From positions 1 through 20,434 of the forward strand of contig JAADHJ010000048.1 of the NCBI GenBank assembly GCA_013151915.1: a DNA stretch of 20,434 nucleotides, given 5' to 3'. A program made the translations under genes and the position numbers. Positions within the stretch are counted from its first letter, which is position 1. The number at the start of each line of letters is the position of its first letter. The notes under the pieces were generated by a model. That model did not search any database. It worked only from the letters and a program-made list of their open reading frames with translations, and was not told the DNA's origin. Shown piece by piece: positions 3,029 to 18,997 of this stretch. The stretch is from Deltaproteobacteria bacterium (GTDB lineage Bacteria > BMS3Abin14).

Positions 3029-3086
3029 TTTACTCCTCCTTGTTCGCGCTTCATCATCAAGTTTCGTCCGTAATATCTTTTTAAAG

Positions 3087-3668: not shown

Positions 3669-3681
3669 TATCTCGAACCTC

Positions 3682-4254: not shown

Positions 4255-4389
4255 TGATAACCTCGCAAAAAGTCATCAACGCGCCCATTGAAGGGCGCCC
4301 AAATCGAAGATTTGTGAGGAAAGTGAAAATGACACTTTTCGCTTTCCGTGGAGTAAAAAGCCATTAACGGACTTTTTACGACCCTATCT

Positions 4390-4659
4390 TTACTGAACGT
4401 CAATTTCATCAATAATCCCAATGATCGTTGCGTCCACGGGACACCCATCATCGCCTACCGCCTGCCGGGCACCACTCCCCTGAACAACAAAGACTCTTTC
4501 CCCCACACCGGCTCCCACAGCATCGATAGCAACCAGCGTCCCACCCTGGGGTTCCTCTGTCCTGGGATCCAGCGGCTGGATGACCTGGATCTTGCTGCCA
4601 ACCAGATTTTCATGCTTGCGTGTGGCTACGACTGTCCCAATGACGCGGGCGATTATCAT
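4390..4659 (-). CDS. pduN: BMC vertex pentamer protein (PduN/EutN/CcmL family, BMC-P)
   Basis: 89 aa with the MIIARVIGTVVATRKHENL N-terminus typical of EutN/PduN. AGGAGG ribosome-binding site upstream. Confidence 0.9.
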   Translation of the reverse strand: MIIARVIGTVVATRKHENLVGSKIQVIQPLDPRTEEPQGGTLVAIDAVGAGVGERVFVVQGSGARQAVGDDGCPVDATIIGIIDEIDVQ

Positions 4660-4683
4660 GACGTTTTTCCTCCTTAACGGGGA

Positions 4684-5490
4684 TCAGAATTCCTCATTAT
4701 CAGCCATCAGTATCCCATACCGGGCGGCAAGATCCTGAGCCAAAGGCGTGAAGCGCCATTGCGGCTGGACCATGACTGCAGCACCCAGACGTTGGGCGTG
4801 GTTGATGTCAGCCGCAGTAACCAGCGGACCCGCCGGCCTGAAGACCCTTCCATGTGTATCCGGGACGCCGGCAGTCCCTTCTTCTTGAAGATTTTCCCTG
4901 CTCAGAACGGTGTTCACTGTGTCTCGCAACCTGCCTACATCGGTCAACCGGCAACCGTAGGAAACCAGAGTGTCGAGGATATTGTCCATGGCATCCCGCA
5001 GGGCCTTCGATCCTCTGTGGAAGCCCAGTTCCTTCCGCCCATAGGCCGTGGGATCGACTCCATTTCGAGCCACGATCACCGGTTTGCCCATAAAAAGGCC
5101 GTGGAGAATACAGTTCGTTGCCGTGTTGTCGGCAATGAGCATCCTGATCTTGGCAGCAGTGTTGACGCTCAGCAAAGGCACGATCACCGCCCGGACCTGC
5201 TTGAGACATCCGAGCCAGTTCGCAGTGGAAACCCGGCCCTGATGGGGAAACCCGGCCAGCCCGTCGTGTATGACCGGTGCGTACAGCTGTTCGGCAGACG
5301 TAGTGAAGACCATCCTCACCTCATATCCGTCGAGGATAAGCCGGCGAAGCTGGTTCACAACCTCGCCCATTCCGACGGTAGCTCCCGAAAAAACCGCCAG
5401 CACAATTCCCTTACTGCCATCGGCGCCTACGATCGCGGCCACTTTTCCGACAACCTCATTGACGATATTCTGTATGATGCGCCCATCCAT
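4684..5490 (-). CDS. BMC-associated protein: PduM-like N-terminal helix + flavoprotein-fold (HFCD/PF02441-like) core + PduM-like C-terminal motif
   Basis: The N-terminus MDGRIIQNIVNEVVGKV is an amphipathic helix resembling encapsulation peptides and the PduM N-terminus. The middle resembles the flavoprotein (Dfp/CoaC-like) family: LAVFSGATVGMGEVVNQLRRL...VRMVFT and VIVPLLSVNTAAKIRMLIADN...PVIVARN. The C-terminus has a TPLAQDLAARYGI motif reminiscent of PduM. Functional assignment is tentative. Confidence 0.5.
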   Translation of the reverse strand: MDGRIIQNIVNEVVGKVAAIVGADGSKGIVLAVFSGATVGMGEVVNQLRRLILDGYEVRMVFTTSAEQLYAPVIHDGLAGFPHQGRVSTANWLGCLKQVRAVIVPLLSVNTAAKIRMLIADNTATNCILHGLFMGKPVIVARNGVDPTAYGRKELGFHRGSKALRDAMDNILDTLVSYGCRLTDVGRLRDTVNTVLSRENLQEEGTAGVPDTHGRVFRPAGPLVTAADINHAQRLGAAVMVQPQWRFTPLAQDLAARYGILMADNEEF

Positions 5491-5499
5491 GATAAGAAC

Positions 5500-6390
5500 C
5501 TAGGCCATCTTCCCACTTGACCGCATTGACATGGAGGACACCTGTTCATCGAAGCAGGTCAGGGCGATTCCAAGAGGTGTCACCAGCAGTGGATTACAGG
5601 GCTGTACAACCTCCAGGCCCGTCTGGTCCTGCATCACCTGGGCGATACCTGGAAAGCAGCTGGTGCCCCCCACCAGATAGATCGTCTCAATCGAGGGAAA
5701 CCCTGTTAAGTGGCGCTTTACAATGGAACCCATTTTCTCGAAAACCGGTCGGACAAGGTGGATGATCTCCATCTGCCGGGTGGTATCGCGTTTGAGTTTC
5801 TCCGCCAGGTGGGAGTCTATTTTAAAGTTGCCCGCAAGGACCAGATCCACGTGGATGCCGCCCGTCGGTTCATCGGCTGAATATATAACCTCTCCACCCT
5901 CCAGGATGGAGATCCCCGTCGTTCCCCCACCGACATCAACCACGGCGCCATCCATGATTTCCAAAGCCCGTGAGGCTGCGCTTGGTTCATCCATCATGCC
6001 GACCACTTCCAGCCCGGCCGCCTCCAGAATATTGGAAAATGCCCTGGCATTCGGCCCGGAGGTACCGGGCGGGTAGGCGACCGCGGCAGACCGAATGGGA
6101 TAGCCGCCTTCCTGAAGGTCCTTCACCTGCCGGCGCAGGATCGCAACAGCTCCCAGGTAATCGAACACCAGCCCGTCCCGGACACTTGAATGGCTGCGGG
6201 TGAGCGCTCCAGCCACCGGATTTCTTTCGGCATCCACCACCGCCGTCACGATGTATGCTGTGCCAAGATCAACGCCTGCGGACAGGGGTCCATCGACTCC
6301 CCGCTTACCGTTCAGGTCCAGAGACAATGCGAAGGCATTTATCCTTCCATTTGCCGTTTCGTTGACATGGTTTGACAGGTTCCGGTTCAC
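5500..6390 (-). CDS. eutJ: EutJ-like actin/Hsp70-fold ATPase (putative chaperone)
   Basis: GVDLGTAYIV, VVDVGGGTTGISIL and EPTGGIHVDLVLAGN match EutJ. A GTG start overlaps the stop of the upstream gene (GTGA), suggesting translational coupling. Confidence 0.85.
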   Translation of the reverse strand: MNRNLSNHVNETANGRINAFALSLDLNGKRGVDGPLSAGVDLGTAYIVTAVVDAERNPVAGALTRSHSSVRDGLVFDYLGAVAILRRQVKDLQEGGYPIRSAAVAYPPGTSGPNARAFSNILEAAGLEVVGMMDEPSAASRALEIMDGAVVDVGGGTTGISILEGGEVIYSADEPTGGIHVDLVLAGNFKIDSHLAEKLKRDTTRQMEIIHLVRPVFEKMGSIVKRHLTGFPSIETIYLVGGTSCFPGIAQVMQDQTGLEVVQPCNPLLVTPLGIALTCFDEQVSSMSMRSSGKMA

Positions 6391-7007
6391 ACTTCTTTTC
6401 CTGTGAGGCGCTGCAAACTGGTTTCCGCGGCACTGGTAGCCCGTTCAACATCAGACTGTTTTCCACCGAGGTATAGGCGACCCACCGCACCGTAGGTCCT
6501 GCAATCCACAAGGGTGATGCGTGAGTTTTTTTCCGCCTCGTTGGCCGCGAGTGTAATGTAGGCCGCGGGTTGAACTTCCAGGATGTAAAGATCCTGCCCC
6601 GGAAGCAGCATCGAGCTGAGGCGTGAAACGTTGACCATCTGGGCGTGATAGGGGTTGACCTTGTGGATCACCTGAGAACTGAGGATCTTCGGTTTGATCC
6701 GGTCCTCGATCTTCAGTCCAAGTGTCTTCAGAACCGCTTGACCGGCGTGCTTCACCTCCTCCTGGGTCTGGGCGTGAAATTCCAGAACACCAAAGTGTCT
6801 TTCCACCACCATCATTCCAGGCTGGACGTTGGCCGATTTGAGGGCCGCGTCGGTCACATCGTTTATCTTGACCCCTGGAGATATCTCCACCAGGATTGCA
6901 GCCATCCCCGGAACAGGAATATAACCCCGGGCATTGGCCCCCATATAGGCGGCAAACTGGGGCTGTAATCGATCCAGGTACACGTATGAACGTAGTTCCA
7001 CTGTCAT
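6387..7007 (-). CDS. BMC-T shell protein (tandem permuted BMC domains, PduB/EutL-like, short form)
   Basis: Two BMC-like repeats (DAALKSANVQ..., AANEAEKNSRITLV...GRLYLGGKQSDVERATSAA) in 206 aa. The distinctive N-terminus ELRSYVYLDRLQPQFAAYMG suggests a permuted order like PduB/EutL. Confidence 0.75.
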   Translation of the reverse strand: MTVELRSYVYLDRLQPQFAAYMGANARGYIPVPGMAAILVEISPGVKINDVTDAALKSANVQPGMMVVERHFGVLEFHAQTQEEVKHAGQAVLKTLGLKIEDRIKPKILSSQVIHKVNPYHAQMVNVSRLSSMLLPGQDLYILEVQPAAYITLAANEAEKNSRITLVDCRTYGAVGRLYLGGKQSDVERATSAAETSLQRLTGKEV

Positions 7008-7555
7008 TTTTCTCTCCTTGCCGAACTATCGCCCGGCTTTCCCCTGGTCCTTTTTCCCGCAGCTCCACTCTTGCGGCCTGAAGTCTTACGGCCTGTTTTT
7101 CTTGGAGTGCTTTTTTTCCCGGCTCCTGTGGAATCCGGATCAGGTTTTTCTTTAGCAGCAGTCACGGCAACCTCGATCTCCATGGAAGCCGATTCCGCTT
7201 CGGGTTCCACGGCCGGTTCGTCTGAACTCTTCTCAGAGGGCTCAGGCTCTTCCTGCACCTTTTCGAGCTCATCCGGAGCAGTGGGCGCGGACGGTTTGAT
7301 TGGAATCTGATCGTCCGGCCGGGGGATCACGTGACTGGCAGTGAGAGTACCGATCTTTTCAGCCGCCGCGGTTCCCGCAGCCACCGCGGCCTGCACTGCT
7401 CCAACGTCACCGAGAAACTTGACCGTAACCAGCCCCTCCAGTGTTATTTCGTATCCGAGGAAAACCACATCGGCTGACTTCGTGGCCGCATCCGCCGCTT
7501 CAATGGCGGCTGTGTATCCCATGGTTTCGATAAGACCAAGGCTTCGTTTTTTCAT
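7004..7555 (-). CDS. BMC-H shell protein (PduA/EutM-like) with ~95-aa disordered acidic-then-basic C-terminal tail
   Basis: Canonical BMC domain (LGLIETMGYTAAIEAADAATKSADVVFLGYE...GDVGAVQAAV...HVIPRP). It is followed by a Pro/Glu-rich acidic stretch and an Arg/Lys/Gly-rich terminus (KKSTPRKTGRKTSGRKSGAAGKRTRGKPG). Confidence 0.85.
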   Translation of the reverse strand: MKKRSLGLIETMGYTAAIEAADAATKSADVVFLGYEITLEGLVTVKFLGDVGAVQAAVAAGTAAAEKIGTLTASHVIPRPDDQIPIKPSAPTAPDELEKVQEEPEPSEKSSDEPAVEPEAESASMEIEVAVTAAKEKPDPDSTGAGKKSTPRKTGRKTSGRKSGAAGKRTRGKPGDSSARREK

Positions 7556-7608
7556 TGGACGCCTCTACCTTTCCAGTTCAATTTTGACAACCCGCCCCGG
7601 GATGCATG

Positions 7609-8109
7609 TTACGCGTACATCCCGCCTGATGGACTTTTTGCGAGGCCATCAATTTTAGCTATGGCTTCTCTGACCAGCTGTTCCAACTGCTCCTGGGAAA
7701 ACTTGATGGGACAAAAAGCATCCGGCTCGCCATCAGATCCGTCGGCGAGGATCATGGGATTGCCCTTCACCAGACGCGCTGCGTTGGCCCCGAGGTTCCT
7801 CAAGGGTGTTTCTTCCAGGGGTCCGGGACCAAGGATGAAAAGCGGTGTTTTCTCCGGCAGATCCCGGTGGTGTAAAACCGCGAATCCCCGATCTTCGTCA
7901 ACACCGACCCCCACGCCGACCGGTGACCTGTCGGCAGCTTGTTTGGCCATGTTTTCAGGGGGACCCTGTTTCGCCTCGAAGATCTTTGCGGGAACACCCT
8001 CTTCTTCCAGGCCCAGCAGGATTCTTTCCACTATCCTGGAGCCGGAAAGCCCCGTCCCATAGATATAGACGGCGGGTTTGTCTTCAGGTTGTGCGAACCT
8101 CGGATTCAT
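7609..8109 (-). CDS. pduH: Diol/glycerol dehydratase reactivase small (beta) subunit (PduH/DhaG/GdrB-like) with C-terminal extension
   Basis: LGLEEEGVP, SPVGVGVGV and LRNLGANAARLVK match DhaG/PduH. An extra ~45 C-terminal residues contain an amphipathic helix (SQEQLEQLVREAIAKIDGL). Confidence 0.8.
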   Translation of the reverse strand: MNPRFAQPEDKPAVYIYGTGLSGSRIVERILLGLEEEGVPAKIFEAKQGPPENMAKQAADRSPVGVGVGVDEDRGFAVLHHRDLPEKTPLFILGPGPLEETPLRNLGANAARLVKGNPMILADGSDGEPDAFCPIKFSQEQLEQLVREAIAKIDGLAKSPSGGMYA

Positions 8110-8120
8110 GGCCGATTCTC

Positions 8121-9944
8121 TCAGTTTTCCCCGTTCACGTACGCCAAAACCAGTCCTGTCGCAACAGCATTGCGTGGACCCTCCACACCCCTGACATTGG
8201 CTCTGCCGGTCACCACTCCACTTTCCACAAGGACATCGGAGATCATTTTTGGGATCTCAAAATCAAGCGCCGATCCTCCAACAAGAGCGACAAAGCTGAT
8301 GAGCCGGATATTGCCGGCAGGAGCGATCCTCTCAAGGGCACGCAACGCATTTCGAACGAAAACCCTTTTTTTCGCATTCTGACGAACCTGAACGATCTTC
8401 GATAAAGGTTCGCTGATCTCCAGGGGAATGGGCCCTTCACCGCCAAGAACCACAACTCGTCCAAAGAGCCTGGGTTCGAGGGGTTCATGAAAAAACTGAA
8501 CCGAACCATCCTCATGACGCATATGAAAAAGGGTTTCCACCTTGGCCAGGGGATTAACCTTGATCCTTTCAGCCAGATCACGGTCGTCCAGCCCGAGTTC
8601 CGTATCGATGAGCAAGGTGACCATGTCTCCCGCACCGGCCAGATGGATGCTTTTGATCTCACCGGCCTCGCTGATCAGGGAAGCATCCGTCGATCCCCCT
8701 CCCAGGTCCAGAATGGCCATAGGAGGTTTGAGACCCGGCGTAGTGAGCGCGCCGCGTATAGCCATCTCAGCTTCTACACCCCCGATGTTGGTAGAAACCG
8801 AGATCTCCTCTTCCAGTTTCCTGGCAAGACGCTGCATGGGGAGTTTATGGGTTTTTACCATCGCTGCCAGTCCTACGGCATTACCCATGGAATACTCTCC
8901 CGCCAGGCTTCCTAAAACCCTTTGGGGTTTCAAGGTATCTACAGCGAGTATGTCCTGAACCTGGATGGCGCTCACAGGCTGATCCGTCAGGTCGGCCATG
9001 ACTGTCCGGACATGTTCGAACATTCCTCCCACATGGGTCCCAGCTTCGGCCTGAATTTCCAGCAGCGGAGAGACGAGAGCCACCTTTTTCATAATAGCTT
9101 CAGCCCCCTCCTCCACCTTCACCACTTCCTTCCGGTTTTCCCCCATCAATACGATGCTTCCAGCCGGGATTCGGCGTTCCTCGATGTCTCCCCTGGGTGT
9201 TTTAATCACCACGGCGCTTCGTGTGCCCATGAGAGCCCTGGCTATGGGGACCACCTGTCTGGTCTCATCGGGATCCAGATCAAAGAGCGTGGCAATATCG
9301 TAGGGGTTGGACAGCTTCTCGATCGTCCTGCCCTGCGAGGCGACCTCAACAGCCGCAGGCATGTCCAGGGGAACCCTGTCAACATGTCTTACCTCGTCCA
9401 CAATGGGGATAGACCTGTGCAGCCGGTTATTGATGAGCACCGCGTCGTCCTTCTGGACGATGGCACCAGCCACAATGAGGTCCCTCGAAATTGCCCTGGT
9501 CAACCGCTCGGCCGCTTCTTTGAAGCCGAATTCACCGGGAATGATCACGATCCAGGGTCCAGACACCTGGGTCGTTTCCAGTTGGTCGAGGGTGATGGTC
9601 GTCCCGATGCCAAGACCTAATCCTCCGGGGGTCCCGGGATTGTGACCGATCATGGCTGATTCGGTGATGACGGTTTCTGTGATCGTCTCCATGGCTACAT
9701 CACCGATGACAGGCGCAGCCTCGTTAAGAAGGATCAGGCTGAGGTCATTTCGCTCAAGTCCCGCCAACGCAAGGCTCTTATCCAGAGCATCGATGACCCC
9801 CAAAGCATTGCGTATGGTCCCCTTGATCCCTATGGTTCTTACCAGGGAACTGGAAAGTATGTCCGCTTTGCCCGCTGTGGCCACTCTCCCTATGGCAACC
9901 TCAGTCGAGTTGTTTCCAACGTCTACCCCGGCGATAAAAGTCAT
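8121..9944 (-). CDS. pduG: Diol/glycerol dehydratase reactivase large (alpha) subunit (PduG/DhaF/GdrA-like)
   Basis: 607 aa. An N-terminal ATPase motif (MTFIAGVDVGNNSTEVA) and a second actin-like motif (ILDLGGGSTDASLI) are typical of reactivase alpha subunits. Confidence 0.9.
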   Translation of the reverse strand: MTFIAGVDVGNNSTEVAIGRVATAGKADILSSSLVRTIGIKGTIRNALGVIDALDKSLALAGLERNDLSLILLNEAAPVIGDVAMETITETVITESAMIGHNPGTPGGLGLGIGTTITLDQLETTQVSGPWIVIIPGEFGFKEAAERLTRAISRDLIVAGAIVQKDDAVLINNRLHRSIPIVDEVRHVDRVPLDMPAAVEVASQGRTIEKLSNPYDIATLFDLDPDETRQVVPIARALMGTRSAVVIKTPRGDIEERRIPAGSIVLMGENRKEVVKVEEGAEAIMKKVALVSPLLEIQAEAGTHVGGMFEHVRTVMADLTDQPVSAIQVQDILAVDTLKPQRVLGSLAGEYSMGNAVGLAAMVKTHKLPMQRLARKLEEEISVSTNIGGVEAEMAIRGALTTPGLKPPMAILDLGGGSTDASLISEAGEIKSIHLAGAGDMVTLLIDTELGLDDRDLAERIKVNPLAKVETLFHMRHEDGSVQFFHEPLEPRLFGRVVVLGGEGPIPLEISEPLSKIVQVRQNAKKRVFVRNALRALERIAPAGNIRLISFVALVGGSALDFEIPKMISDVLVESGVVTGRANVRGVEGPRNAVATGLVLAYVNGEN

Positions 9945-9960
9945 ACACCGAAAACCCCGA

Positions 9961-10530
9961 CTATTTCTTTAAACGTCCGCGTCCCTCATACACCACCGCT
10001 GCTTCGTGGACCAGAGCGGCACAGACACGGGCGTCGTATTTGGATTCCAACTCTCCGGCGATGTCCAGGAGCTCCTGTTTGGTGGACCGGTAAGGTCTCA
10101 TAGCATTGTATATCTCCAGGACTCGTTCATCCGGGATTCTGGTCAGTTCCGCGGCTCTGCGCAGGTTTGCGGCCAGGCTTGGACGTCCCGCACTTTCAGC
10201 GATCTGGGCCTGATATTCCAGGGTTTCAGGGCGAATCTTAATGTCTTCGAAAGACAAGCTTCCTTCTACGACTTTGTCGAGAGTTATATCTTCGAGTTTC
10301 AGACCGCTGGCGGACTGGACCAAATCGGGCCGATTGTTGGCAAGAGGATAATCCCTTTTCGCGTCAAGCCCCTCTTTCGAGCCGGCGGGCTGCCGAGCGC
10401 CCCCGCCCGATTCGCCCTGTATCGCGGACATCACCTGCTTGACCACCTCCGCTACGCGATCGGGGGAAATATCAAGGCCTTTGGCCTTGATCATGTCTTC
10501 CACCTTTTTGGACATATAATCGTCAGCCAT
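9961..10530 (-). CDS. pduE: B12-dependent diol/glycerol dehydratase small (gamma) subunit with ~50-aa N-terminal extension
   Basis: The core (DYPLA...DITLDKV...LEYQAQIAE...RRAAELTRIPDERVLEIYNAMRPYRS) matches PduE/DhaB3. The N-terminal extension has an amphipathic helix (SPDRVAEVVKQVMSAI) followed by a Gly-rich linker. Confidence 0.9.
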   Translation of the reverse strand: MADDYMSKKVEDMIKAKGLDISPDRVAEVVKQVMSAIQGESGGGARQPAGSKEGLDAKRDYPLANNRPDLVQSASGLKLEDITLDKVVEGSLSFEDIKIRPETLEYQAQIAESAGRPSLAANLRRAAELTRIPDERVLEIYNAMRPYRSTKQELLDIAGELESKYDARVCAALVHEAAVVYEGRGRLKK

Positions 10531-10594
10531 GATTTCCTTTCCTTGTTACCGGGTTATCCTGCTATCCGCAGGAAAGTTTCAACCTGGCCTGGAA

Positions 10595-11233
10595 CTAGAT
10601 GGAAAGCTCAACCGTTTTCCTGTTCTGATCCACCGCCTGGACTTCTTTGTTGTGAAGCAGAGCCGCCAGCCCCTGGTAGCGGGGTCTGGCCATGGGATCG
10701 TTGCGAACAGGAACAGGATTGGGGCTCTCACCTTTTGCATACTTGGCCGCATTGCGTCCGATGGCTCTGAACGTCTCCAGTTCCACCAGAGGTGACTGGG
10801 AGAACAGCTCCAGGTTCTGCAGAGGAGCCAGGTCTTTCTGGTGGATCACTGTGGTTCCCCGGGAAAGAATGCCTATGCCGATTCCCGATCCACTGAGTTT
10901 AGCAGCCTCGTGACCAATGAATGCCACGTCAGCGGTCCTGTAAACCCTGACAAGTCTGGGATGAAGGCCTTCCTCTTCAATTCCGGCCATCAGTTCCCGC
11001 AGGACCTCCCTGTGGGGAAGCCCGATAATCGTCTTGGTCATTGTCCTGCCGAATGCCTGCGGGAGCCCGATAACGACCTCGCTACGATCAGTCCCCGGTT
11101 CAGCTTCTCCATCTTCGGTCATATCCATCGGTGGGACATCCACATCAGCGTTAAATCCGGAATCCTCTTCTCCCTGCATCTGCCCGAGGACCTCAAGGAT
11201 AATCTGTTTCACCATCTCTTCAGAAATTTTCAT
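10595..11233 (-). CDS. pduD: B12-dependent diol/glycerol dehydratase medium (beta) subunit with N-terminal encapsulation peptide
   Basis: The core (GIEEEGLHPRLVRV...LSGSGIGIGI.SRGTTVIHQKDL.PLQNLELFSQSPL) matches PduD/DhaB2. The N-terminus MKISEEMVKQIILEVLGQM resembles the PduD encapsulation peptide and is followed by an acidic linker. Confidence 0.9.
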   Translation of the reverse strand: MKISEEMVKQIILEVLGQMQGEEDSGFNADVDVPPMDMTEDGEAEPGTDRSEVVIGLPQAFGRTMTKTIIGLPHREVLRELMAGIEEEGLHPRLVRVYRTADVAFIGHEAAKLSGSGIGIGILSRGTTVIHQKDLAPLQNLELFSQSPLVELETFRAIGRNAAKYAKGESPNPVPVRNDPMARPRYQGLAALLHNKEVQAVDQNRKTVELSI

Positions 11234-11259
11234 TACATATATCCTCCACTCCGGCAGCG

Positions 11260-12927
11260 CTATACGTCCTCAGGACTGATTGCCTGGGGGATGTTCTTGA
11301 GTATCTCCCACCTTTCCCCATCCAGACGATACCCTGTCCCGGGCCCCTCGTAATCGTTGGGATCATTCACGGCACTCAGAACAACGAAATCATCATCGAA
11401 TATGGCGGAGGTATGGAGATAATCCCCGGAAACTTTCTGTTTGAGCATGTTCAGGACTCCTTCCGCCACGTCCTTGAAACCATGTTTTGCAAGAGCACGA
11501 ACCACATCCAGCCCGTTTCCTCCCCGTTTCATGAATTCGTCGATGCTGCGCAGATCCTCCGGTACGTTCCGATCGGGCACATCTTTGCTGCCATGGGCAT
11601 AAGTAACCGCTTCCACCTCTGCATCGGTAATCGGCGGCAATCGCAGTTCCTCAAAGATAGCCTGGAGCGCTCGGGCGGCTTTGTTCCGAATAGCGATAAT
11701 ATCCTCCTCATTCACCGGACGCAGGCCGCCATCGACCTGGAAATCCCTCTGAAGAACCAGATAATCATCGTAATCGTCACAATCGTGCGTGGATCCGGCG
11801 AACATGTTGTCGTAGTTGGGAACAGTGCTGTATCCCGAGAAGATAAAATCTGTGCCGGGCAGAAATTGCATGAGCATTCGTGCCGTATTGCGGATAGGAG
11901 AATGAGTGAAGGTCTGATCATTGCCGGACGCCACCTCCATGTCCATCAGGACGGTCGCGATGTTCTCAGCCAGAACCGCTCGAATCCCGGAAGGCACAGC
12001 CCCCGGAACTCCTATGCAGCTGATCGAACCGTTCTGAAGACCCTGTACACCTGCGCCCTTGGTGATCATGACACAGCGGATTTCGAGGTAGAGCATGGAT
12101 TTGCGTTCCGCATAACCCATCTGCACCTCTGAGCCCGTCCCGGAGGTGAACCTCATCTTCACTCCCCTAGAGGCGTAGGCCGATGCCAGAAAGGCCTTTG
12201 ACCAGGGGGTATCATCCCCATCAACGAAAACCTGCTCGGTGCCGTAAACGGAAACCGTTTCCGCGTATGCGGTCAGCCCCCGCATCCCCATGGTGAGTTC
12301 CAGCGCCTCTTCCACAGCGCACTGCGTCAGCACACCGGGACGACCCGTCTGGGAACCTACAAGTATGGAGAGCGCATTCATGGGAGCGTAGCGTCCCACA
12401 CCCACAGTGGTTTCCAGTTCCGTAAATCCGCGAAAAGCCCCTTCCGCCGCATCAGCTGCCAGAAGAGCGGGGGTATCTTTGAGGTTGGTGACATGGCCCT
12501 GGTTTGACGGTGTTCGCCTCGCCCGGAGCTTCTGCATGGTCATCATGAGCTCGACCACATTCATTACCTTGAGGATATCGAGGATCTTGGCCGGAGTCAT
12601 TCCGACAGCCAGGCGAACGATTTCGGATCTCGGTACATGGATGTCCACCAGCATACGGGCGAACTCCACCGAATCGATGGCCATGGCTTCAGCGGCCACT
12701 TCTGTGTCAATGCAGTGGTCGGCAATCCAGGTGTCGATCATATCGAATTCCCGGCGGGGTTTCCCGTCCAGTTCCACTACTTTTCCACTTTCAATCCTGA
12801 TCCCAGGTTCAGGGTCGTAGGGGCTATCCATAGCGACCAGACCTACTTCGACCCATTCTTTAATAAAGCCGTCCTTATTAACCGAACGATCGGCCAATAC
12901 CTGGAAGCGTTTCTGTCTTTTGCTCAT
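11260..12927 (-). CDS. pduC: B12-dependent diol/glycerol dehydratase large (alpha) subunit
   Basis: 555 aa. MSKRQKRFQVLADRSVNKDGFIKEW and many blocks (e.g. SGTGSEVQMGYAE..., TKGAGVQGLQNGSISCIG) are typical of PduC/DhaB1/GldA-alpha. Confidence 0.95.
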   Translation of the reverse strand: MSKRQKRFQVLADRSVNKDGFIKEWVEVGLVAMDSPYDPEPGIRIESGKVVELDGKPRREFDMIDTWIADHCIDTEVAAEAMAIDSVEFARMLVDIHVPRSEIVRLAVGMTPAKILDILKVMNVVELMMTMQKLRARRTPSNQGHVTNLKDTPALLAADAAEGAFRGFTELETTVGVGRYAPMNALSILVGSQTGRPGVLTQCAVEEALELTMGMRGLTAYAETVSVYGTEQVFVDGDDTPWSKAFLASAYASRGVKMRFTSGTGSEVQMGYAERKSMLYLEIRCVMITKGAGVQGLQNGSISCIGVPGAVPSGIRAVLAENIATVLMDMEVASGNDQTFTHSPIRNTARMLMQFLPGTDFIFSGYSTVPNYDNMFAGSTHDCDDYDDYLVLQRDFQVDGGLRPVNEEDIIAIRNKAARALQAIFEELRLPPITDAEVEAVTYAHGSKDVPDRNVPEDLRSIDEFMKRGGNGLDVVRALAKHGFKDVAEGVLNMLKQKVSGDYLHTSAIFDDDFVVLSAVNDPNDYEGPGTGYRLDGERWEILKNIPQAISPEDV

Positions 12928-12957
12928 TTGTCGCTCCCTTTTTTTTCCTGCTCTTTA

Positions 12958-13767
12958 TCAGATATAAGGCTCGGTCACAGGTTTGGGTACATCACCCCAT
13001 GCGCCCAACAACTTGATGCCAACCTCGCGGCCGGAAATCACAGCCTGGCGTACCGCACCGGAATCACCGCTGACCCAGATCATGACTTCGTTGGTCAAAC
13101 TGGTGCCTTTCGCCGGCGATGCATACCCTACGACCTCCACGTCCGCAGCCTTGACCGCGGTGTCGATCATAAGCACCCCAATAACCGCAGGGGCCCCGAG
13201 GATCAACCCGAACGCTTTTCCTTCGGGGGTATTGAACACCTTATGCAGTCCCCTGCTGGCCCTGGCCGTATACTGAAGCTCCAGATGCCCCTGATCGTTG
13301 GTATAAACGTCACCGAAATATTTGGGCAGCGTCTCAAGGGTGACCTCAACAGCGCGCCGGGCATCCGAAACGTCCTCGGCGGCAAACACGATCAGGTTTC
13401 CATGGCCCGCTCCACCTTTCGTATCCCTGGGCATTTCAATGGATACGATTTCAGTGTTGGTAGCCTTGACGGCATCGTCGGCAGCCATAATCTGCGGTCC
13501 GGCGCCGATACGACCACCGATAACCCCGATGGACCGATATTTATTATCGATTCCCATCAGATCCTGGATGATGGGATCCAGGTTTGCGATCACGATACCC
13601 TGGGTTTCCCCCAGGCCGACCCCGACGAACTCCGTCACCTGGACCAGGTCCTCCGAAGGCACCGGGTTGCTGGAACGCTGTTCCGGCGCGACTTTTTCAT
13701 CGGACTGGGCAGAGCCGACCCTGCTCATCACTTCCGCTAAAACTTTGTTAATTAATTCCTCTTGCAT
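12958..13767 (-). CDS. pduB: PduB-type BMC-T shell protein (tandem permuted BMC domains)
   Basis: Near-colinear match to PduB: RSIGVIGGRIGAGPQIMAADDAVKATNTEIVSIEMPRDTKGGAGHG...GDVY.N..GH.ELQYTARAS...VISGDSGAVRQAV. Confidence 0.9.
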   Translation of the reverse strand: MQEELINKVLAEVMSRVGSAQSDEKVAPEQRSSNPVPSEDLVQVTEFVGVGLGETQGIVIANLDPIIQDLMGIDNKYRSIGVIGGRIGAGPQIMAADDAVKATNTEIVSIEMPRDTKGGAGHGNLIVFAAEDVSDARRAVEVTLETLPKYFGDVYTNDQGHLELQYTARASRGLHKVFNTPEGKAFGLILGAPAVIGVLMIDTAVKAADVEVVGYASPAKGTSLTNEVMIWVSGDSGAVRQAVISGREVGIKLLGAWGDVPKPVTEPYI

Positions 13768-13820
13768 CGGTTATTTCCTCCTGGTTATATGCCGATGTCA
13801 TTCTCGATCCAGGACGATTT

Positions 13821-14108
13821 CTAACTGGACTCCACAGACTTGGGCAGGATCTTTTCCACATCCTGATGAGGCCTCGGAATGACGTGAACGGACACAACTT
13901 CACCGACCTTCTGGGCGGCGGCGGCACCCGCGTCGGTTGCGGCCTTGACGGCCCCGACGTCACCGCGGACCATGGTGGTCACAAGCCCGGCCCCGATCTT
14001 GACGTTGCCCACCAACACTACATTGGCTGCCTTGACCATGGCATCCGCGGCTTCAATGTTGGGGACCAGCCCCCTTGTTTCGATCATTCCCAACGCTTCC
14101 TTAATCAT
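13821..14108 (-). CDS. pduA: BMC-H shell protein (PduA/PduJ-like)
   Basis: [34 protein letters not shown]...GDVGAVKAA...HVIPRP. The likely start is M21 of the track ORF, preceded by a GGAGA ribosome-binding site. Confidence 0.9.
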
Positions 14109-14153
14109 GATACTTTCTCCTATCACCCTGCCGGGTACGGTAAACAACAGCTT

Positions 14154-14180
14154 CGGGGGGCGCTCCAACAGCAGCCCCCG
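14154..14180 (-). other. GC hairpin in gldA-to-shell-gene spacer (possible partial terminator/attenuator or processing site)
   Basis: CGGGGG...CCCCCG 6-bp GC stem with a ~15-nt loop. On the minus strand it is followed by AAGCUGUUGUUUA, which is only weakly U-rich. It lies in the 143-nt gap between gldA and the first shell gene. Confidence 0.3.
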
Positions 14181-14251
14181 TAGCTGTCACAAGGTTCTTT
14201 GAAAGGCTAAGCCGAACTCTCCTCATTTTGCTTCAGGATGCAATGTCACTC

Positions 14252-15358
14252 TCAATTCTGCCTTTTAAATTCTCGACCGAGAGCGTCTGCCGTCCAGATG
14301 GCCGATTCGACCATATCTGCCGTAACGGGGAACCAGGTGGCGTGTATTGTTTCCCCCTCCGCGGTCGTCGCCTCAGCCACTTTCCTGATATCTTCAGTTG
14401 TGGGGTTCACAAGCCCGATATCCTTGAGAGTAATGGGCAGGCCGACGCTTTCACAGAAATTGAGAACTTCGTAGATATCTTCCGAGGGTCTACCTTCGAG
14501 GACCAACTGGGTCAGGGTGCCAAAGGCCACTTTCTGACCGTGGTATTTATCGTGGGATTGCTCGAGCATGGTAAATCCGTTGTGGACGGAGTGAGACGCG
14601 GCGAGGCCTCCGCTCTCAAATCCCAGTCCGCTCAGAAGCGTATTGGCCTCGACAATGGCCTCGACAGCGGGCGTTACCGAATTTTTCTCCACCGCCAGTT
14701 TAGCCTGAAGGCCGGACTCCAGAAGGGTATCGTAGCAGAGTCTCGCCAAAGCCATGGCGGAAAGGGTGGGTGGTGTTCCGCCCGTCAGGACATTAGGCTT
14801 GCAGCTCTTTGCGCACGTGTCGGCCTCCCAGAAGGTGGCCAGAGCATCGCCCATACCCGAAACGAGAAACTCCACGGGGGCCTGGGCCACGACAGTGGTG
14901 TCAACGAGAACGCACTCAGGGTTTTTTGGGAGAACCAGGTAGCGTTCGAATACACCGTCGTCGGTGTAAATGACCGAAAGTGCTGAACAGGGAGCATCAG
15001 TAGCGGCGATGGTGGGCACAACAATGACGGGAACTTTCATCTCATGGGCCACGGCTTTCCCTGTGTCGATAACCTTGCCCCCTCCAGCGGCTATTACCAG
15101 GTCCGCTCCGTGGGCCTTTCCCACATCCACCAGCCGTTGAATCTCTTTGTCACAACACTCGCCGTTAAAACTCTCTGATCTACAGTCGATGTCTTTCTCC
15201 CTCAAGCTGGCCTCGATGGAACTGCCGCAGGATGAAAGAGCCGTCCGTCCTCCCGTCAAGAGAGCTTTAGTACCGAAATTACCGGCGTGAGTTCCGATTT
15301 CCTTAATAGTTCCGGCACCTTGAATGTACCTTGATGGCGCCAAAAGCAATCTTCCCAT
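14252..15358 (-). CDS. gldA: Glycerol dehydrogenase (GldA family, metal-dependent polyol dehydrogenase)
   Basis: Colinear with E. coli/B. stearothermophilus GldA: GGGKVIDTGKAVAH, VPTIAATDAPCSALSVIYTDDGVFERYL, TPAVEAIVEANTLLSGLGFESGGLAASH, HGQKVAFGTL, ATTAEGETIH. GGGAGGAGG ribosome-binding site upstream. It is the first gene of the minus-strand operon. Confidence 0.9.
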   Translation of the reverse strand: MGRLLLAPSRYIQGAGTIKEIGTHAGNFGTKALLTGGRTALSSCGSSIEASLREKDIDCRSESFNGECCDKEIQRLVDVGKAHGADLVIAAGGGKVIDTGKAVAHEMKVPVIVVPTIAATDAPCSALSVIYTDDGVFERYLVLPKNPECVLVDTTVVAQAPVEFLVSGMGDALATFWEADTCAKSCKPNVLTGGTPPTLSAMALARLCYDTLLESGLQAKLAVEKNSVTPAVEAIVEANTLLSGLGFESGGLAASHSVHNGFTMLEQSHDKYHGQKVAFGTLTQLVLEGRPSEDIYEVLNFCESVGLPITLKDIGLVNPTTEDIRKVAEATTAEGETIHATWFPVTADMVESAIWTADALGREFKRQN

Positions 15359-15658
15359 GTCTTACCTCCTCCCCTATCATTCTATCTCGGGGCTGAACCG
15401 CAAGTTTCGGGCTCGAAGTAAAACCCTTCAAGCCACTCCGGCAGCTTATGTCAAACTCATGTCATTTTTTTGACCACCTCCTCACACATTGGGATATATT
15501 CAGTGTCCACAACCCGGACCACAGACCCGGTCTGTTCTTGACAGGGTTCTGCTCCAAGTGATTTCCGCGAACCTGATTGTCTCAACTGGAAAAAATGAGT
15601 CTCACGGGAAAATTCCCGCCTCTTTTATATGAAAGAATAAAATGAGACCAGATGCAAT

Positions 15659-15680
15659 CCCCCGAAACGGGGGTTTTTTT
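15659..15680 (+). terminator. Plus-strand-oriented intrinsic terminator-like hairpin (CCCCCG-aaa-CGGGGG + T7) with no obvious plus-strand gene
   Basis: Read directly: a perfect 6-bp GC stem, 3-nt loop and 7 T residues. The orientation terminates plus-strand transcripts, yet both flanking genes are on the minus strand. Confidence 0.5.
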
Positions 15681-15787
15681 CACCTTATCGGGTGTATTTC
15701 GGGTGATATTGGAGGGGGGTGGAGTAAATCATCTCCCGTTACAGGATTTCTAAAGACACCGGCAGCCGTATGGCAGAGGAGGTGATG

Positions 15788-16186
15788 TTATTCACTATTC
15801 AGCATATAGAAAGAGGTGATGTTCGAACCCTCATGGAGAGCCCTGACAATTTGGGCCAGTTCCTTGGATTCAATGCTTTTCAGGACGTAAGCGTCTGCAC
15901 CGGCAACAACCGCCTCGTTTATGCTGTTTTCATCGTCATAAGACGACAGAACAACCACTTTAGTCTGAGGAAAGTTCTTCTTAAGCGTCCTGATAGTTCT
16001 GAAGCATGAAAAACTGTTTCCGTTCAGGTCGATCAAGCAGACGTCCGGCGGGTCGAGTCTCATCCGGTCGATGGATTGCATGCCGTCCCAGGAAGCATCC
16101 ACTGAAATGATATCTTCTTCACAATCAAGGCTGTATTTCAGTGCTGTTCTGTAAAGCGGATCTTGGTCAGCAAAAAATATTTTCAT
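15788..16186 (-). CDS. Stand-alone response-regulator receiver domain (CheY-like)
   Basis: MKIFFADQDPLYRTAL...CLIDLNG...VVVLSSY...YVLKS carries the receiver signature residues (acidic pair, Asp, Ser/Thr, Lys). GGAGGTGG ribosome-binding site before the ATG at 16186. There is no output domain. Confidence 0.8.
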   Translation of the reverse strand: MKIFFADQDPLYRTALKYSLDCEEDIISVDASWDGMQSIDRMRLDPPDVCLIDLNGNSFSCFRTIRTLKKNFPQTKVVVLSSYDDENSINEAVVAGADAYVLKSIESKELAQIVRALHEGSNITSFYMLNSE

Positions 16187-16229
16187 TACCACCTCCATTA
16201 TGTTTGGCAATAGAGGGTCGTCCTGAGGC

Positions 16230-16889
16230 TCACGCCCTGGTTTTCATCTCAATGGCGACCCTCATCGCTTCGACCCGGTTCTTGGCATGGATCTTCCGGT
16301 AAATGTTTTTTACATGGGTTTTAACCGTATCTTCACTGATGTGCAGGTTGCGCGCAATGTCCTTGTTGCACTTACCTTCCGCAATAAGGTTGAAAACTTC
16401 ATTCTCCCTTCTGGTTAACTGATCAAGGGGCCTTTGGAAAGATTCTTCCTCCCCATCACACTGGAGGGTCAGATTGGCCAGATATGGAGAGATCTTCTGC
16501 TCACCACGGTAAAAAGCTCTAACGATATCCCTGAGATCGTTGAGGCCGATGCTTTTGAGGAGATAGCCATCCGCCCCGGCTCTCATGGCGTCCTTGACGT
16601 ATTTTTCGTCCTTGAACGTGGAAAGTGCGATGATCCTCATTTCAGAAGATGTCTTCCTTATGATCTTGATTACCTCGATGCCCGAAAGACCCGGCATATC
16701 GATGTCGATAAGGCAAACGTCGGGGCAAAGGGCCTTAACCTTGTCCACAGCTGTAAACCCGTCCGTGGCCTCCCCAACGTACTCGAATCCGTTTTCCGCG
16801 GTGAACGAAAGTCTTAAACCGGCTCGCAGCAGTGGGTGGTCATCGGCCACAAACACCTTGATCAGTTCCTGGACTTCGTTACAGATCAT
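16230..16889 (-). CDS. NarL/FixJ-family response regulator (receiver + LuxR-type helix-turn-helix)
   Basis: Receiver domain (VFVADDHPLLRAGL...CLIDIDMPGLSGIE...IIALSTF...YLLKS) followed by a LuxR-type helix-turn-helix (LTRRENEVFNLIAEGKCNKDIARNLHISEDTVKTHVKNIYRKI). Confidence 0.9.
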   Translation of the reverse strand: MICNEVQELIKVFVADDHPLLRAGLRLSFTAENGFEYVGEATDGFTAVDKVKALCPDVCLIDIDMPGLSGIEVIKIIRKTSSEMRIIALSTFKDEKYVKDAMRAGADGYLLKSIGLNDLRDIVRAFYRGEQKISPYLANLTLQCDGEEESFQRPLDQLTRRENEVFNLIAEGKCNKDIARNLHISEDTVKTHVKNIYRKIHAKNRVEAMRVAIEMKTRA

Positions 16890-16958
16890 TGTCCTGTCCT
16901 TCAGGCCACCGCCTGAACCACATCTGTGATCAACAATTATTGAAAGCGGCTGACATCA

Positions 16959-18650
16959 TCACACTCCAGGCAGAACAAAGGAAAAAATGCAGCCCTCATT
17001 TTTCCTGGAGTCCCATTGGGTTGTGGGAGATTTCAACCAGATGCAGCCGTCATGGGCTTCCACCATCTGTTTGCAGACTGCAAGGCCGATGCCTATGCTC
17101 CTTCTCTCCGGCAGATTCATGGTTCTAATGGTGAAAAATTTGTCAAAAACAGAGTCCTGGTATTTTTCCGGGATACCCACCCCACTGTCGATGATCTCAT
17201 TAAGGATGTAAAATCTCCCATCCACCAGAGCCTCTCTGTAATGGGACGGAACACCGTTTTTCACACTTTTGAGATCAGAACCGGAGACCATGGTGGTGGA
17301 CACCTCTATCACACCCCCCTCTGGACTGTATTTGATAGCGTTGTCAAGGAGGTTGACAAAAATACGTGTCAATCGCACGCTGTCTCCAGCCATTTTCAGC
17401 GGTTTTGGTGGTACCTGATAGCGAATGGTGATCCCCTTGTCGTCCAGATGAAACTTCAGCTGCTGAATGCTGTTATGAACGATATCCCTGATATCAAAAA
17501 TGGTCTTGAAAAGATTGAACTGCCCGCTTTCACTTCGGTAGTTATCCAGCAGGTCGTTTGCAAGCCCATAGATCTGCTTCGTGGTACCGATGGCCATGGT
17601 GAGGATCTCCGATAGTTGTTCGTTAAAGGCAAGATCGGAATCGGCCAGGAGTTGAAGGGCTTTTTCAACCGAAAGGACAGGGTTCCTCATATCGTGAGTC
17701 ACCATGGCAACCAGGTCTTCTTTCATTCGCTGGACCCTTTTTTCCTCCGAGATATCACGAACCACCGCGACATATCCCGCATTTCTTTCCTTTTCAGGAT
17801 CGACGATCCCGGAGAGGGACACATGGACGGGAAATTCGGTCTGGTCCGATTTCTTCGCCAGCAATTCTCCCAACCAGCTCTTCTCCCGACAATGATTTGA
17901 GGCTTTATCCAGATAAGTATCCACAGATTCCTGACCCGCCAGCAGTGACAGAATCGACCTGCCGGCCAACTGGCCGGCATCCCATTGAAAAATATGCTCG
18001 CTGGCGCTGTTGACCATGGTGATGTTGTGTTCGTTGTCCGTTGAAATAATGCTGTCGGAAACGCTGTTGATGAGAACATGCAGGTATTCCTGAGAACTTT
18101 TGAAAAGCCGATACTTTCCAAGCACCAACTCGCTCACCGTTTTCGTGATAAGCGCCATCAGGTTGACGATGTCCAACAGGCGGGAGCTACTCATGATCGG
18201 GATCTGCGCCAACTCGCGCATATATCCTGAAACATCCGAAATCCCTATGGAAAGAGCCCTCTCACGGGCCACATCCTCTTCCAAAGGTTCTTCCAGCACC
18301 TGTCCGCACAAAACGGTCGCAAGGTGATATCCATCAACAACTACGGGAGCCGCACAGTCGATCAGCCCCGCGTTGAGACAACTATAGATGACCGGCGCCC
18401 TTTTTCGGGCCGATTCCTGTCCCCCGTACCAGTCGCTCTGTCGGCACTTCCTTATGCCTTCTTCGGTGCTCCTGCAATACTTCTCACAAAGCCGCGTAAA
18501 ATTGTGCGGCTTTGTTATGGGCGTCCCATCCACATGGACGATAATGGACGCCACTCCCGTCGCCTTCGTAAAAACAGCGAGAATCTCCTCCAGATCGAAT
18601 TCACCGATGAGGTTCAGCAGGTTACTCAGATACTCCATGGAAGTACCCAT
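16959..18650 (-). CDS. Cytoplasmic sensor histidine kinase with N-terminal PocR ligand-binding domain, PAS domain, HisKA and HATPase_c
   Basis: The N-terminus (FTKATGVASIIVHVDGTPITKPHNFTRLCEKYCRSTEEGIRKCRQSD) resembles a PocR sensory domain. A PAS-like middle region is followed by an H-box (VAMVTHDMRNPV) and N/G boxes (LLDNAIKYSP, DSGVGIP, GIGLAVCK). No hydrophobic transmembrane segment is present. Confidence 0.85.
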   Translation of the reverse strand: MGTSMEYLSNLLNLIGEFDLEEILAVFTKATGVASIIVHVDGTPITKPHNFTRLCEKYCRSTEEGIRKCRQSDWYGGQESARKRAPVIYSCLNAGLIDCAAPVVVDGYHLATVLCGQVLEEPLEEDVARERALSIGISDVSGYMRELAQIPIMSSSRLLDIVNLMALITKTVSELVLGKYRLFKSSQEYLHVLINSVSDSIISTDNEHNITMVNSASEHIFQWDAGQLAGRSILSLLAGQESVDTYLDKASNHCREKSWLGELLAKKSDQTEFPVHVSLSGIVDPEKERNAGYVAVVRDISEEKRVQRMKEDLVAMVTHDMRNPVLSVEKALQLLADSDLAFNEQLSEILTMAIGTTKQIYGLANDLLDNYRSESGQFNLFKTIFDIRDIVHNSIQQLKFHLDDKGITIRYQVPPKPLKMAGDSVRLTRIFVNLLDNAIKYSPEGGVIEVSTTMVSGSDLKSVKNGVPSHYREALVDGRFYILNEIIDSGVGIPEKYQDSVFDKFFTIRTMNLPERRSIGIGLAVCKQMVEAHDGCIWLKSPTTQWDSRKNEGCIFSFVLPGV

Positions 18651-18947
18651 TTTTTCAGAGAAGGGCCGAGAGACGGTCCGGGCAGCTATTATTTATCATC
18701 AATCAGGTTCCATCTCCCTTGGATTCGCCACACAAAGAATCCTCCAGGCGACCATCCGCCCGGGGAAAACATCAATAATATTCGAGTATTCAGGGTATCT
18801 TATAGCATGAAGCAATCGAGTCAAGTTCCAATTAAACTCCTGTTGAGCCAAAATCTCAGATTGGTAAAGGCCAATTTACCTGAGAAGGTGGTCTCCTGTC
18901 TTTCTTTATGATTCATCCTGGAAATGAGTACCTGGATGATGACCATA

Positions 18948-18997
18948 CCCCACCATTTGTCATCGCGAACCGTATCCCACCGTTTGTCATCGCGAGC
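18948..18997. repeat. Two direct copies of CCCACC(A/G)TTTGTCATCGCGA(A/G)C spaced 27 bp apart, upstream of the kinase operon
   Basis: Read directly. A third, degenerate inverted copy (TCGCAATGACAGC) lies at about 19118-19131. Confidence 0.5.

Follow-up and report, generated by a model that had tools for sequence, protein, structure and literature searches.

Predicted control of a gldA-pdu microcompartment operon by a PocR-domain kinase two-component system in a PDU1D-type locus of a Deltaproteobacteria bacterium

Introduction

Bacterial microcompartment (BMC) operons are costly and are expressed only if their substrate is available. Experiments have shown how they are controlled by the AraC-type regulators PocR and EutR and by EutVW antitermination, but not how the PocR-kinase route of propanediol utilisation (PDU) loci of the PDU1D type works. 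This route was examined here in a stretch of 20,434 nt (the window; contig JAADHJ010000048.1, assembly GCA_013151915.1) from a Deltaproteobacteria bacterium, in which genes for a PocR-domain sensor histidine kinase, a NarL/FixJ-type response regulator and a receiver-only protein precede gldA and a PDU-type microcompartment operon; all coordinates are window positions. We consider it probable that the kinase, the regulator and a predicted operator in front of gldA form a PDU1D-type system that switches on the gldA-pdu operon in a Desulfobacterota-like host.

A two-component system (TCS) with a PocR-domain kinase was described as a hallmark of PDU1D loci by Axen, Erbilgin and Kerfeld (2014; PMC4207490), who likened it to that of the Clostridium butyricum 1,3-propanediol operon, and the double-domain BMC-T was found among PDU loci only in PDU1D of Proteobacteria and one Acidobacterium (Sutter et al., 2021; PMC8217296). 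With the PDU1D loci of both papers the window shares the PduCDE signature enzyme, the adjacent PocR-kinase TCS, the double-domain BMC-T and, as far as the window extends, the lack of an AraC-type PocR. The core idea, published in 2014 (PMC4207490), is not new, and the novelty implied in a preliminary description of this DNA, made from the sequence alone, was overstated. The PDU1D papers (PMC4207490, PMC8217296) deal with gene content only, and neither an operator or promoter nor the regulator class, a receiver-only gene or variants with a second regulator are described in them; the present analysis contributes as new elements an operator/promoter model, a conserved core of kinase, regulator, operator and gldA, and a catalogue of variants with extra receivers. 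The window adds no new principle, but the comparative analysis turns the gene-content remark of 2014 into a testable model, which comprises a 48-bp operator and takes in naturally occurring variants that possess a second regulator or an additional receiver. Such a system could be developed into a switch, inducible by diols or glycerol, that is portable to anaerobes and engineered microcompartments.

In Salmonella enterica, PocR is an AraC-family activator of pdu and cob and, as summarised in PMC7593272, controls the pdu operon in response to 1,2-propanediol. The homologous N-terminal PocR sensory domain and a pdu microcompartment operon as target are shared with the window, but PocR is a one-component protein in which this domain is fused to an AraC helix-turn-helix (HTH), whereas here it is joined to a PAS-HisKA-HATPase kinase that is accompanied by a LuxR-type regulator. 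In Acetobacterium woodii, the Awo_c25930/25920 pair lies upstream of pduA, its regulator bound the pduA upstream region in an electrophoretic mobility shift assay and bound both intergenic regions, including that upstream of its own kinase gene, and the pduA promoter was induced by 1,2-propanediol, 2,3-butanediol, ethylene glycol and ethanol (PMC7593272). The TCS of the C. butyricum 1,3-propanediol operon (Raynaud, 2003) was described by Axen et al. as PocR-domain-containing (PMC4207490). In both Firmicutes, as in the window, kinase and regulator genes stand directly upstream of a diol-utilisation operon. At 43 kDa, the A. woodii regulator is roughly double the size of the NarL-type regulator found here (219 aa), and it also binds before its own kinase gene, whereas the kinase gene of the window has no operator copy upstream.

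The eut microcompartment of Enterococcus and Listeria is controlled by the EutW-EutV TCS, whose output protein EutV, an RNA-binding antiterminator of the ANTAR type, targets hairpins in the leader in concert with a B12 riboswitch RNA. For EUT2 loci, Axen et al. (2014; PMC4207490) noted a TCS in 87%. A dedicated TCS within a microcompartment locus that switches the operon on upon substrate is common to this system and to that proposed here, but the output of EutV is RNA antitermination, whereas the window regulator carries a DNA-binding LuxR-type domain and no riboswitch or conserved leader RNA was found (Rfam, leader alignment). The FixL-FixJ-FixT system of Sinorhizobium and Caulobacter shares the protein classes, namely a sensor-PAS-HisKA kinase, a receiver (REC)-LuxR/FixJ regulator and a single-domain receiver, and the last of these, FixT, acts by inhibiting the autophosphorylation of FixL, without ever being phosphorylated itself and without serving as a phosphate sink (PMC7078487). 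FixL senses O2 via haem, whereas the kinase here carries a PocR domain, and fixT is induced by its own pathway as feedback, whereas the receiver gene of the window is apparently co-transcribed with the kinase gene; the likeness of the receiver-only protein to FixT is one of functional analogy and not of family membership.

Materials and Methods

Protein domains were assigned with Pfam, subfamilies with NCBIfam, and RNAs with Rfam. Loci with kinase homologues were collected by a single-sequence scan of genome contigs, which gave 2 relevant loci, and by a profile-based metagenome scan, which added 80; the metagenome loci were mapped by tblastn with the window proteins as queries. Loci were dereplicated at 97% nucleotide identity, and linkage counts were restricted to loci with a kinase identity of at least 44% and enough flanking sequence.

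A hidden Markov model (HMM) of the operator was seeded from the leaders of 7 loci and run with nhmmer on about 1 Mb, both strands. The operator/promoter consensus was derived from 43 aligned sites, and pairing statistics were obtained from 33 sites and compared with column shuffles. Conservation of the 5′ untranslated region (5′ UTR) was assessed by an alignment of 26 leaders and a k-mer search, and receiver residues were compared with those of 73 full-length relatives of the regulator.

Results

Linkage of the kinase and regulator genes to pdu loci

The three open reading frames (ORFs) named in the preliminary description were all recovered on the minus strand, encoding the kinase (563 aa; 16959..18650), the regulator (219 aa; 16230..16889) and the receiver-only protein (132 aa; 15788..16186), and their same-strand position upstream of gldA and the microcompartment operon was borne out. 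The role proposed there for this module, regulation of the BMC operon, finds support in the conserved linkage of the genes and in an operator and promoter that are conserved within the leader. When the context of seven kinase homologues (47-79% identity) was looked up, six adjoined a PDU operon, in upstream same-strand, downstream same-strand or convergent layouts, and the seventh locus had the order kinase-regulator-regulator2-gldA without shell genes. Among the non-redundant loci counted for linkage, pdu/BMC genes were present in 29 of 36, or in 31 of 36 when gldA was included, and none of the seven loci with a kinase identity below 44% contained pdu/BMC genes. The dominant layout was kinase, regulator, a gap of 400-600 bp, gldA, DUF1097, BMC-H, PduB, PduCDE and PduGH. 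Adjacency of kinase and regulator genes was fixed in about 70 loci, with the regulator gene following the kinase gene in nearly all. At locus L069 (8001-10166), kinase and regulator genes were both broken by frameshifts or stops, as in a decaying copy.

Predicted operator and promoter in front of gldA

The gap between the receiver-only gene and gldA (15359-15787) measures 429 bp, in agreement with the leader of 430 bp noted earlier, but it was not upheld as a single leader: its distal 150 bp would comprise an operator and a promoter, and about 264 nt would form the 5′ UTR of gldA. The leaders of the seven seed loci, whose proteins are 47-80% identical, aligned nearly gap-free over about 90 nt. 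The operator HMM gave 63 nhmmer matches at E<0.01 and located the motif in more than 30 further loci (E 1e-5 to 1e-16), and most strand-matched matches were situated shortly 3′ of the regulator gene and ahead of the target operon, as a rule 245-300 bp upstream of the gldA start. A position weight matrix (PWM) of the single palindrome gave one strong site in the window, with a score of 21.6 against 11.6 for the next-best.

From the seed alignment, HMM and PWM, the operator was predicted on the minus strand at 15659..15706, consisting of a half-site TCACCC (15706-15701) and two imperfect palindromes, palindrome 1 CACCCGATAAGGTG (15694-15681) and palindrome 2 CCCCCGTTTCGGGGG (15673-15659). A sigma-70-type promoter of gldA-pdu was predicted on the same strand at 15629..15657 from the fixed spacing in 43 sites, with a -35 box TTGCAT (15657-15652) that abuts palindrome 2 and a -10 box TTTCAT (15634-15629) after a 17-bp spacer; the whole operator-promoter module occupies 15706-15629. 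The family consensus of the 43 sites was tCCCCC-AAAA-TCCCNC-N4-GNGGGA-(7 nt)-TCCCNC-TTTT-GNGGGATT, in which a TT(G/T)nnA box overlaps the last two T's and is followed 17 bases on by a TTTAAT/TTTCAT box, often preceded by TG, and the spacing from GGGATT to TTTAAT/TTTCAT was fixed and almost gap-free across all of them. We infer a transcription start near 15622, which would place the palindrome centres at about -43.5 and -66.5, in the geometry of a class-II activator, and would leave a predicted minus-strand 5′ UTR of about 264 nt (15359..15622), in which only the ribosome-binding site is conserved family-wide.

The same palindromes (15694-15659) were also considered as RNA hairpins that terminate the TCS transcript or attenuate gldA, which appears very unlikely. 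They lie 3′ of the receiver gene, palindrome 2 forms a perfect GC-rich stem of 5 bp, and a terminator scan flagged it, but on the plus strand only, where a T-run follows; on the coding (minus) strand, ATTGCATC stands after the hairpin in place of a U-tract. Standard pairs amounted to 77.5%, compared with 76.8 ± 0.7 in column shuffles, one stem position was unpaired in 26 of the 33 sites, and changes on both sides were limited to 6 cells at 3 of 12 pairs, no more than in the shuffles. Loops and flanks (AAAA, TTTT, GGGATT) were conserved as sequence, and the motif also occurred inverted upstream of divergent genes (L061, L090, L095). The terminator/attenuator hairpin was rejected on the lack of covariation and of a coding-strand U-tract. 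Conservation of the predicted operator as sequence, with loops and flanks included, is as expected for a dimeric helix-turn-helix site.

A riboswitch or other leader RNA in the 429-bp gap was likewise rejected. No Rfam match was obtained at the gathering threshold in the whole window, Rfam in E-value mode on 15300-15850 returned chance-level matches only (E>1), and in the gldA leaders (26-leader alignment and k-mer search) no conserved block was found beyond the operator/promoter and the ribosome-binding site.

Where the downstream target differed, the operator stayed with the TCS genes and not with gldA; in L013, L035, L047, L054 and L056 it precedes a gene for a DUF7973 membrane protein and shell genes. 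In the window gldA is the first gene behind the operator, and family-wide it is the gene most often directly behind it, a frequency that would also suit a TCS controlling chiefly gldA, for cytosolic glycerol or diol oxidation, with the microcompartment operon a mere neighbour under separate control. L011, L016 and L017 (kinase-regulator-regulator2-gldA, with no BMC genes within 4-10 kb), L040 and L041 (operator-gldA facing a convergent pdu operon) and a GC-rich imperfect hairpin between gldA and BMC-H in the window point the same way. However, gldA and the shell/enzyme genes share one strand and are closely spaced in the window, as in about 20 further non-redundant loci; neither a canonical terminator nor a canonical promoter was found between them, and in loci without gldA (L013, L047, L054, L056) the operator stands directly before DUF7973, followed by BMC-H and PduB. 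Control restricted to gldA was judged improbable on this evidence.

Other targets were also seen. In L018 (5707-9423) the operator precedes an ABC transporter operon that includes two ATPase genes, and in L062 (10584-14194) it precedes a 2Fe-2S and molybdopterin aldehyde-oxidoreductase pair. Second operator/promoter copies were present in L011 (12556-12641), L016 (5073-5157), L017 (4065-4149) and L023 (4327-4411), in each case 200-300 bp upstream of a paralogue encoding a second regulator, and this position suggests that the second regulator is itself induced by the system in these four loci.

Proposed mechanism

In the reading preferred here, control of the whole gldA-pdu operon, the soluble kinase would use its N-terminal PocR domain to sense a small alcohol or diol in the cytoplasm, or a compound derived from one, autophosphorylate at His319 and pass the phosphate to Asp62 of the regulator. 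The phosphorylated regulator would then bind the two adjacent imperfect palindromes and the upstream half-site at 15706-15659 and activate the promoter whose -35 box abuts the proximal palindrome (class-II geometry, from the 43 sites), and this promoter would drive gldA, with read-through into the shell and enzyme genes. Transcription of the kinase, regulator and receiver genes would start from a separate promoter that has no operator copy, and the receiver-only protein would modulate the response by docking on the same kinase, either as a phosphate drain or by kinase inhibition.

Several points weigh against this mechanism. Palindrome 1 of the window (CACCC...GGTG) is the most degenerate of the family, the -10 box TTTCAT is weak and was not reported by a generic promoter scan, the pdu-linked locus L051 contained no motif at E<1e-3, and some other, unlinked regulator could in principle use the operator site. 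At L010, L015, L024, L025 and L038, where the TCS genes are downstream of or convergent with the pdu operon, the start of this operon lies outside the DNA covered by the operator scan. A literature search found no experimental work on a Desulfobacterota PocR-kinase system.

Sensor kinase and response regulator

The kinase (minus strand, 16959..18650) comprises PocR (aa 19-175; 18126-18596), PAS/PAS_9 (aa 190-302; 17751-18083), HisKA with the phospho-acceptor His319 (aa 309-376; 17523-17726) and HATPase_c (aa 422-561; 16968-17387) domains, and the architecture described beforehand was confirmed by Pfam. In the domain scan that had been recommended as a check, the PocR domain (PF10114) scored 152.2 bits, far above the cut-off of 23.9 (E 1.4e-44; profile positions 7-160 of 162), and both HisKA and HATPase_c exceeded their Pfam cut-offs. 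The NCBIfam model TransRegPocR aligned to aa 21-171 only (E 5e-22), and the kinase is not a PocR equivalog, because the full-length PocR equivalog NF047788 gave 78 bits, from the N-terminal domain only, against a cut-off of 500. No N-terminal membrane segment was found by hydropathy, the PocR domain starting at residue 19, and the only hydrophobic peak (Kyte-Doolittle, 19-residue; maximum 1.72) lay within that domain; a soluble, cytoplasmic kinase, as had been claimed, is the best reading of this profile.

H319, N433, N437, D488, G490, G492, G520 and G522 were invariant in 17 kinase homologues, and the residues of the H, N, G1 and G2 boxes were likewise invariant in a set of 66. At E<1e-10, 697 kinase homologues were obtained, and the best 120 of them shared an identical architecture of about 560 aa, the named carriers among these being Desulfobacterota ("Deltaproteobacteria").

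A sequence search of the PDB found no solved structure of a PocR domain. An AlphaFold2 (AF2) model of kinase residues 1-185, built with the 66 homologues, had a predicted local distance difference test score (pLDDT) of 91, and the nearest solved folds were GAF/IclR-type small-molecule-binding domains at a template modelling (TM) score of 0.4-0.5; the GAF/IclR-like fold of the model fits a ligand sensor and names no ligand, and binding of a diol or glycerol is read from the family name only. PocR domains are described as binding small hydrocarbon derivatives, 1,2-propanediol in the case of Salmonella PocR. PocR-domain kinases are inferred sensors in the dichloromethane mec cassette as well. Within the PocR domain, Cys55, Cys69 and Cys91 were invariant and Cys59 and His109 were at least 90% conserved among the 66 homologues, and this Cys/His set may form a metal or redox site.

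The regulator (minus strand, 16230..16889) consists of a REC domain (aa 12-123; Response_reg, E 2e-28) and a GerE/LuxR HTH (aa 156-212; E 2e-22), as anticipated for a NarL-type DNA-binding response regulator. Its best NCBIfam match was NarL, and as the 172 bits obtained fall short of the equivalog cut-off of 250, the protein is not NarL proper. D16, D17, D62, T91 and K112 were all present; in the full-length relatives, D16, D17, H18, D62, M65, P66 and K112 were invariant (73/73), position 64 was Asp in 72 of 73, and position 91 was Thr in 63 of 73. From the intact catalytic residues and the fixed gene pairing, we infer phosphotransfer from kinase to regulator.

The recognition helix ETVKSH was near-invariant across the family, which matches the invariance of the operator core CCC/GGG; the clade of the window has (E/Q)DTVKTH in place of ETVKSH. 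Co-variation of recognition helix and operator was considered, but the sole coincident change, in the window clade (CACCC...GGTG in palindrome 1), is a single event and uninformative.

The receiver-only protein

The ORF of the receiver-only gene is readable from TTG 16210 and, with this start included, spans 15788-16210 on the minus strand. ATG 16186 is probably the true start, because it is preceded by a ribosome-binding site, GGAGGTGG. Response_reg was the only domain (E 9e-17), and to that extent the output-less receiver of the preliminary description stands; the role of phosphate sink attached to it remained unproven, with Gln in place of a Mg-binding Asp, the D-M-P motif lost and FixT, the best-studied protein of a comparable kind, not a sink.

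Orthologues with 79-80% identity were present in L002 and L009 and extend 14-15 residues further at the C-terminus than the window copy, and the contig end of L001 holds the first 22 residues of the protein. The gene was confined to one small clade of four loci, most loci having no receiver-only gene. Its ratio of nonsynonymous to synonymous substitution rates (dN/dS) was 0.27, compared with 0.16-0.19 for the regulator and 0.12-0.15 for gldA, and a search downstream of it with the family HTH profile detected no HTH remnant in any frame. Because of this ratio and the missing remnant, it is regarded as a maintained gene and not a recent truncation, and a truncated pseudogene of a second regulator was ruled out by these two results together with the length of the orthologues. 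Descent from the second-regulator paralogues was also unsupported, the protein forming a long separate branch outside all full-length regulators in a neighbour-joining tree, a method unreliable for such branches.

The protein retains the acceptor Asp53, Ser82 (Ser for Thr91) and Lys103. Its acidic pocket is D7-Q8-D9 instead of D-D-H (D17Q in regulator numbering), N-G-N follows the acceptor where the relatives have D-M-P (D in 72/73, M and P in 73/73), and the complete phospho-acceptor pocket of two Mg-binding Asp, acceptor Asp, Thr/Ser and Lys is thus lacking. Efficient phosphotransfer to it is uncertain because one Mg-binding Asp is lost, though the acceptor Asp is kept. In comparison with the cognate regulator, the best-conserved regions were alpha-1 (38% identity) and beta5-alpha5 (52%). 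We propose for the protein a role as modulator, specific to this clade, with the same kinase as docking partner.

Two modes of action were ranked about equally for it, inhibition of the kinase or regulator and a phosphate sink. As a sink, the protein would compete with the regulator for phosphate, hydrolyse it rapidly and raise the induction threshold, a possibility about which we are doubtful. Retention of Asp53, Ser82 and Lys103, the conservation of the kinase-docking alpha-1 and beta5-alpha5 regions and the purifying selection on the gene are in keeping with it. The acceptor+2 position, known in receiver domains for tuning dephosphorylation rates, is altered from D to N. The second Mg-binding Asp, invariant in all 73 full-length relatives, is Gln, however, and substitutions at D13 of CheY, the equivalent Mg-binding position, strongly impair phosphorylation; furthermore, only one clade of four loci carries the protein, and elsewhere the system works without it.

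As a FixT-like pseudo-receiver, the protein would bind the kinase or heterodimerise with the regulator and damp signalling without being phosphorylated, and we hold this reading tentatively. It is favoured by the change of the acidic pocket to D-Q-D and the loss of D-M-P after the acceptor, by the long branch outside all full-length regulators in the neighbour-joining tree, and by the precedent of FixT in the FixL/FixJ system (PMC7078487), to whose kinase and regulator the classes found here correspond, and the separately derived receiver-only genes of L013 and L054 are also shifted in their acidic pair, to G-D-D. The acceptor Asp is nevertheless present and conserved, and the receiver gene of the window, apparently co-transcribed with the kinase gene, has no operator of its own, which, unlike in the case of fixT, would provide no inducible feedback.

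The receiver-only genes of L013 (13156-13548) and L054 (11373-11693) belong to another lineage that is located between the regulator and the target operon and is about 29% identical to the window receiver, with the G-D-D pair mentioned above. Since this lineage is unrelated to the window receiver, extra receivers arose more than once in the family. L068 contains a truncated regulator, and L011, L016, L017 and L023 contain a full second regulator.

A joint reading, in which a FixT-like receiver sets the induction threshold of the organelle and the Cys/His set of the PocR domain is a metal or redox centre, is a long shot. If true, the kinase would combine two inputs, diol availability and redox state, before microcompartment assembly, and the repeated independent gain of receivers or second regulators, some with their own operator, would make the family a naturally occurring collection of rewired three-component circuits.

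gldA and the microcompartment operon

The gldA-like gene (minus strand, 14252..15358) encodes an iron-containing alcohol dehydrogenase of 368 aa that was assigned by Pfam and, by NCBIfam NF006941 (506 bits against a cut-off of 336), to the glycerol-dehydrogenase subfamily. The PDU-type microcompartment operon (1625..14168, minus strand; Pfam) contains genes for BMC-H, PduB, PduCDE, PduGH, a BMC-H-like protein, a double-domain BMC-T, an EutJ-like protein, a flavoprotein, PduN, PduO, an HbpS-like protein and PduP. It accordingly includes the B12 diol dehydratase PduCDE with its reactivase and BMC-H, BMC-T and BMC-P shell genes, and a PocR-domain-kinase TCS takes the place of an AraC-type PocR. 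No AraC-type gene was found by Pfam in the 20-kb window, which was the extent of the search, and the rest of the genome could hold one. The window BMC-T (7007-6387) was 81-87% identical to the products of L010 and L015 genes with PF27545 CsoS1D_N and BMC domains, although the Pfam scan of the window BMC-T itself reported only the C-terminal BMC domain. On gene content the window is a PDU1D locus, because the double-domain BMC-T is present.

In the gap of 143 nt that separates gldA from BMC-H (14109-14251), no terminator was found on the minus strand; the gap contains the GC-rich imperfect hairpin GGGGGCTGC...GCGCCCCCC. Most relatives (compared: L002, L009, L012, L014) carry a DUF1097 membrane-protein gene at this place, which the window lacks. 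PduD, PduE and PduP carry N-terminal extensions; GldA has neither an N- nor a C-terminal extension and is for that reason probably not encapsulated. Homologues of pduL, pduQ and pduW were absent from the operon, which ends at PduP, facing plus-strand NmrA-like and TetR genes.

Transcript of the regulatory genes and its upstream region

The intergenic gaps of 69 nt between kinase and regulator genes and 43 nt between regulator and receiver genes fit a single transcript. A candidate promoter for it, TTGACT-16-TAAGAT, was located on the minus strand at 18797..18824; it is weak, and the consensus scan gave as many hits as expected from shuffles. No operator copy was detected upstream of the kinase gene by the HMM or the single-palindrome PWM. 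Autoregulation through the operator was rejected for lack of such a copy, and the transcript is probably not autoregulated through this operator.

The 650 bp upstream of the kinase gene (18651-19301) were not conserved in the close relatives L001 and L009. They include a tandem direct repeat, TCGCGATGACAAAYGGTGGGRTAYGG, in two copies at about 18993-18944, and an ORF of 102 aa that appears spurious. Further upstream, a PEP-CTERM-anchored secreted protein with a duplicated TEVPEPS motif is encoded at 19347-20039, and a strong terminator after this gene (19321-19302) marks the upstream boundary of the regulatory transcript.

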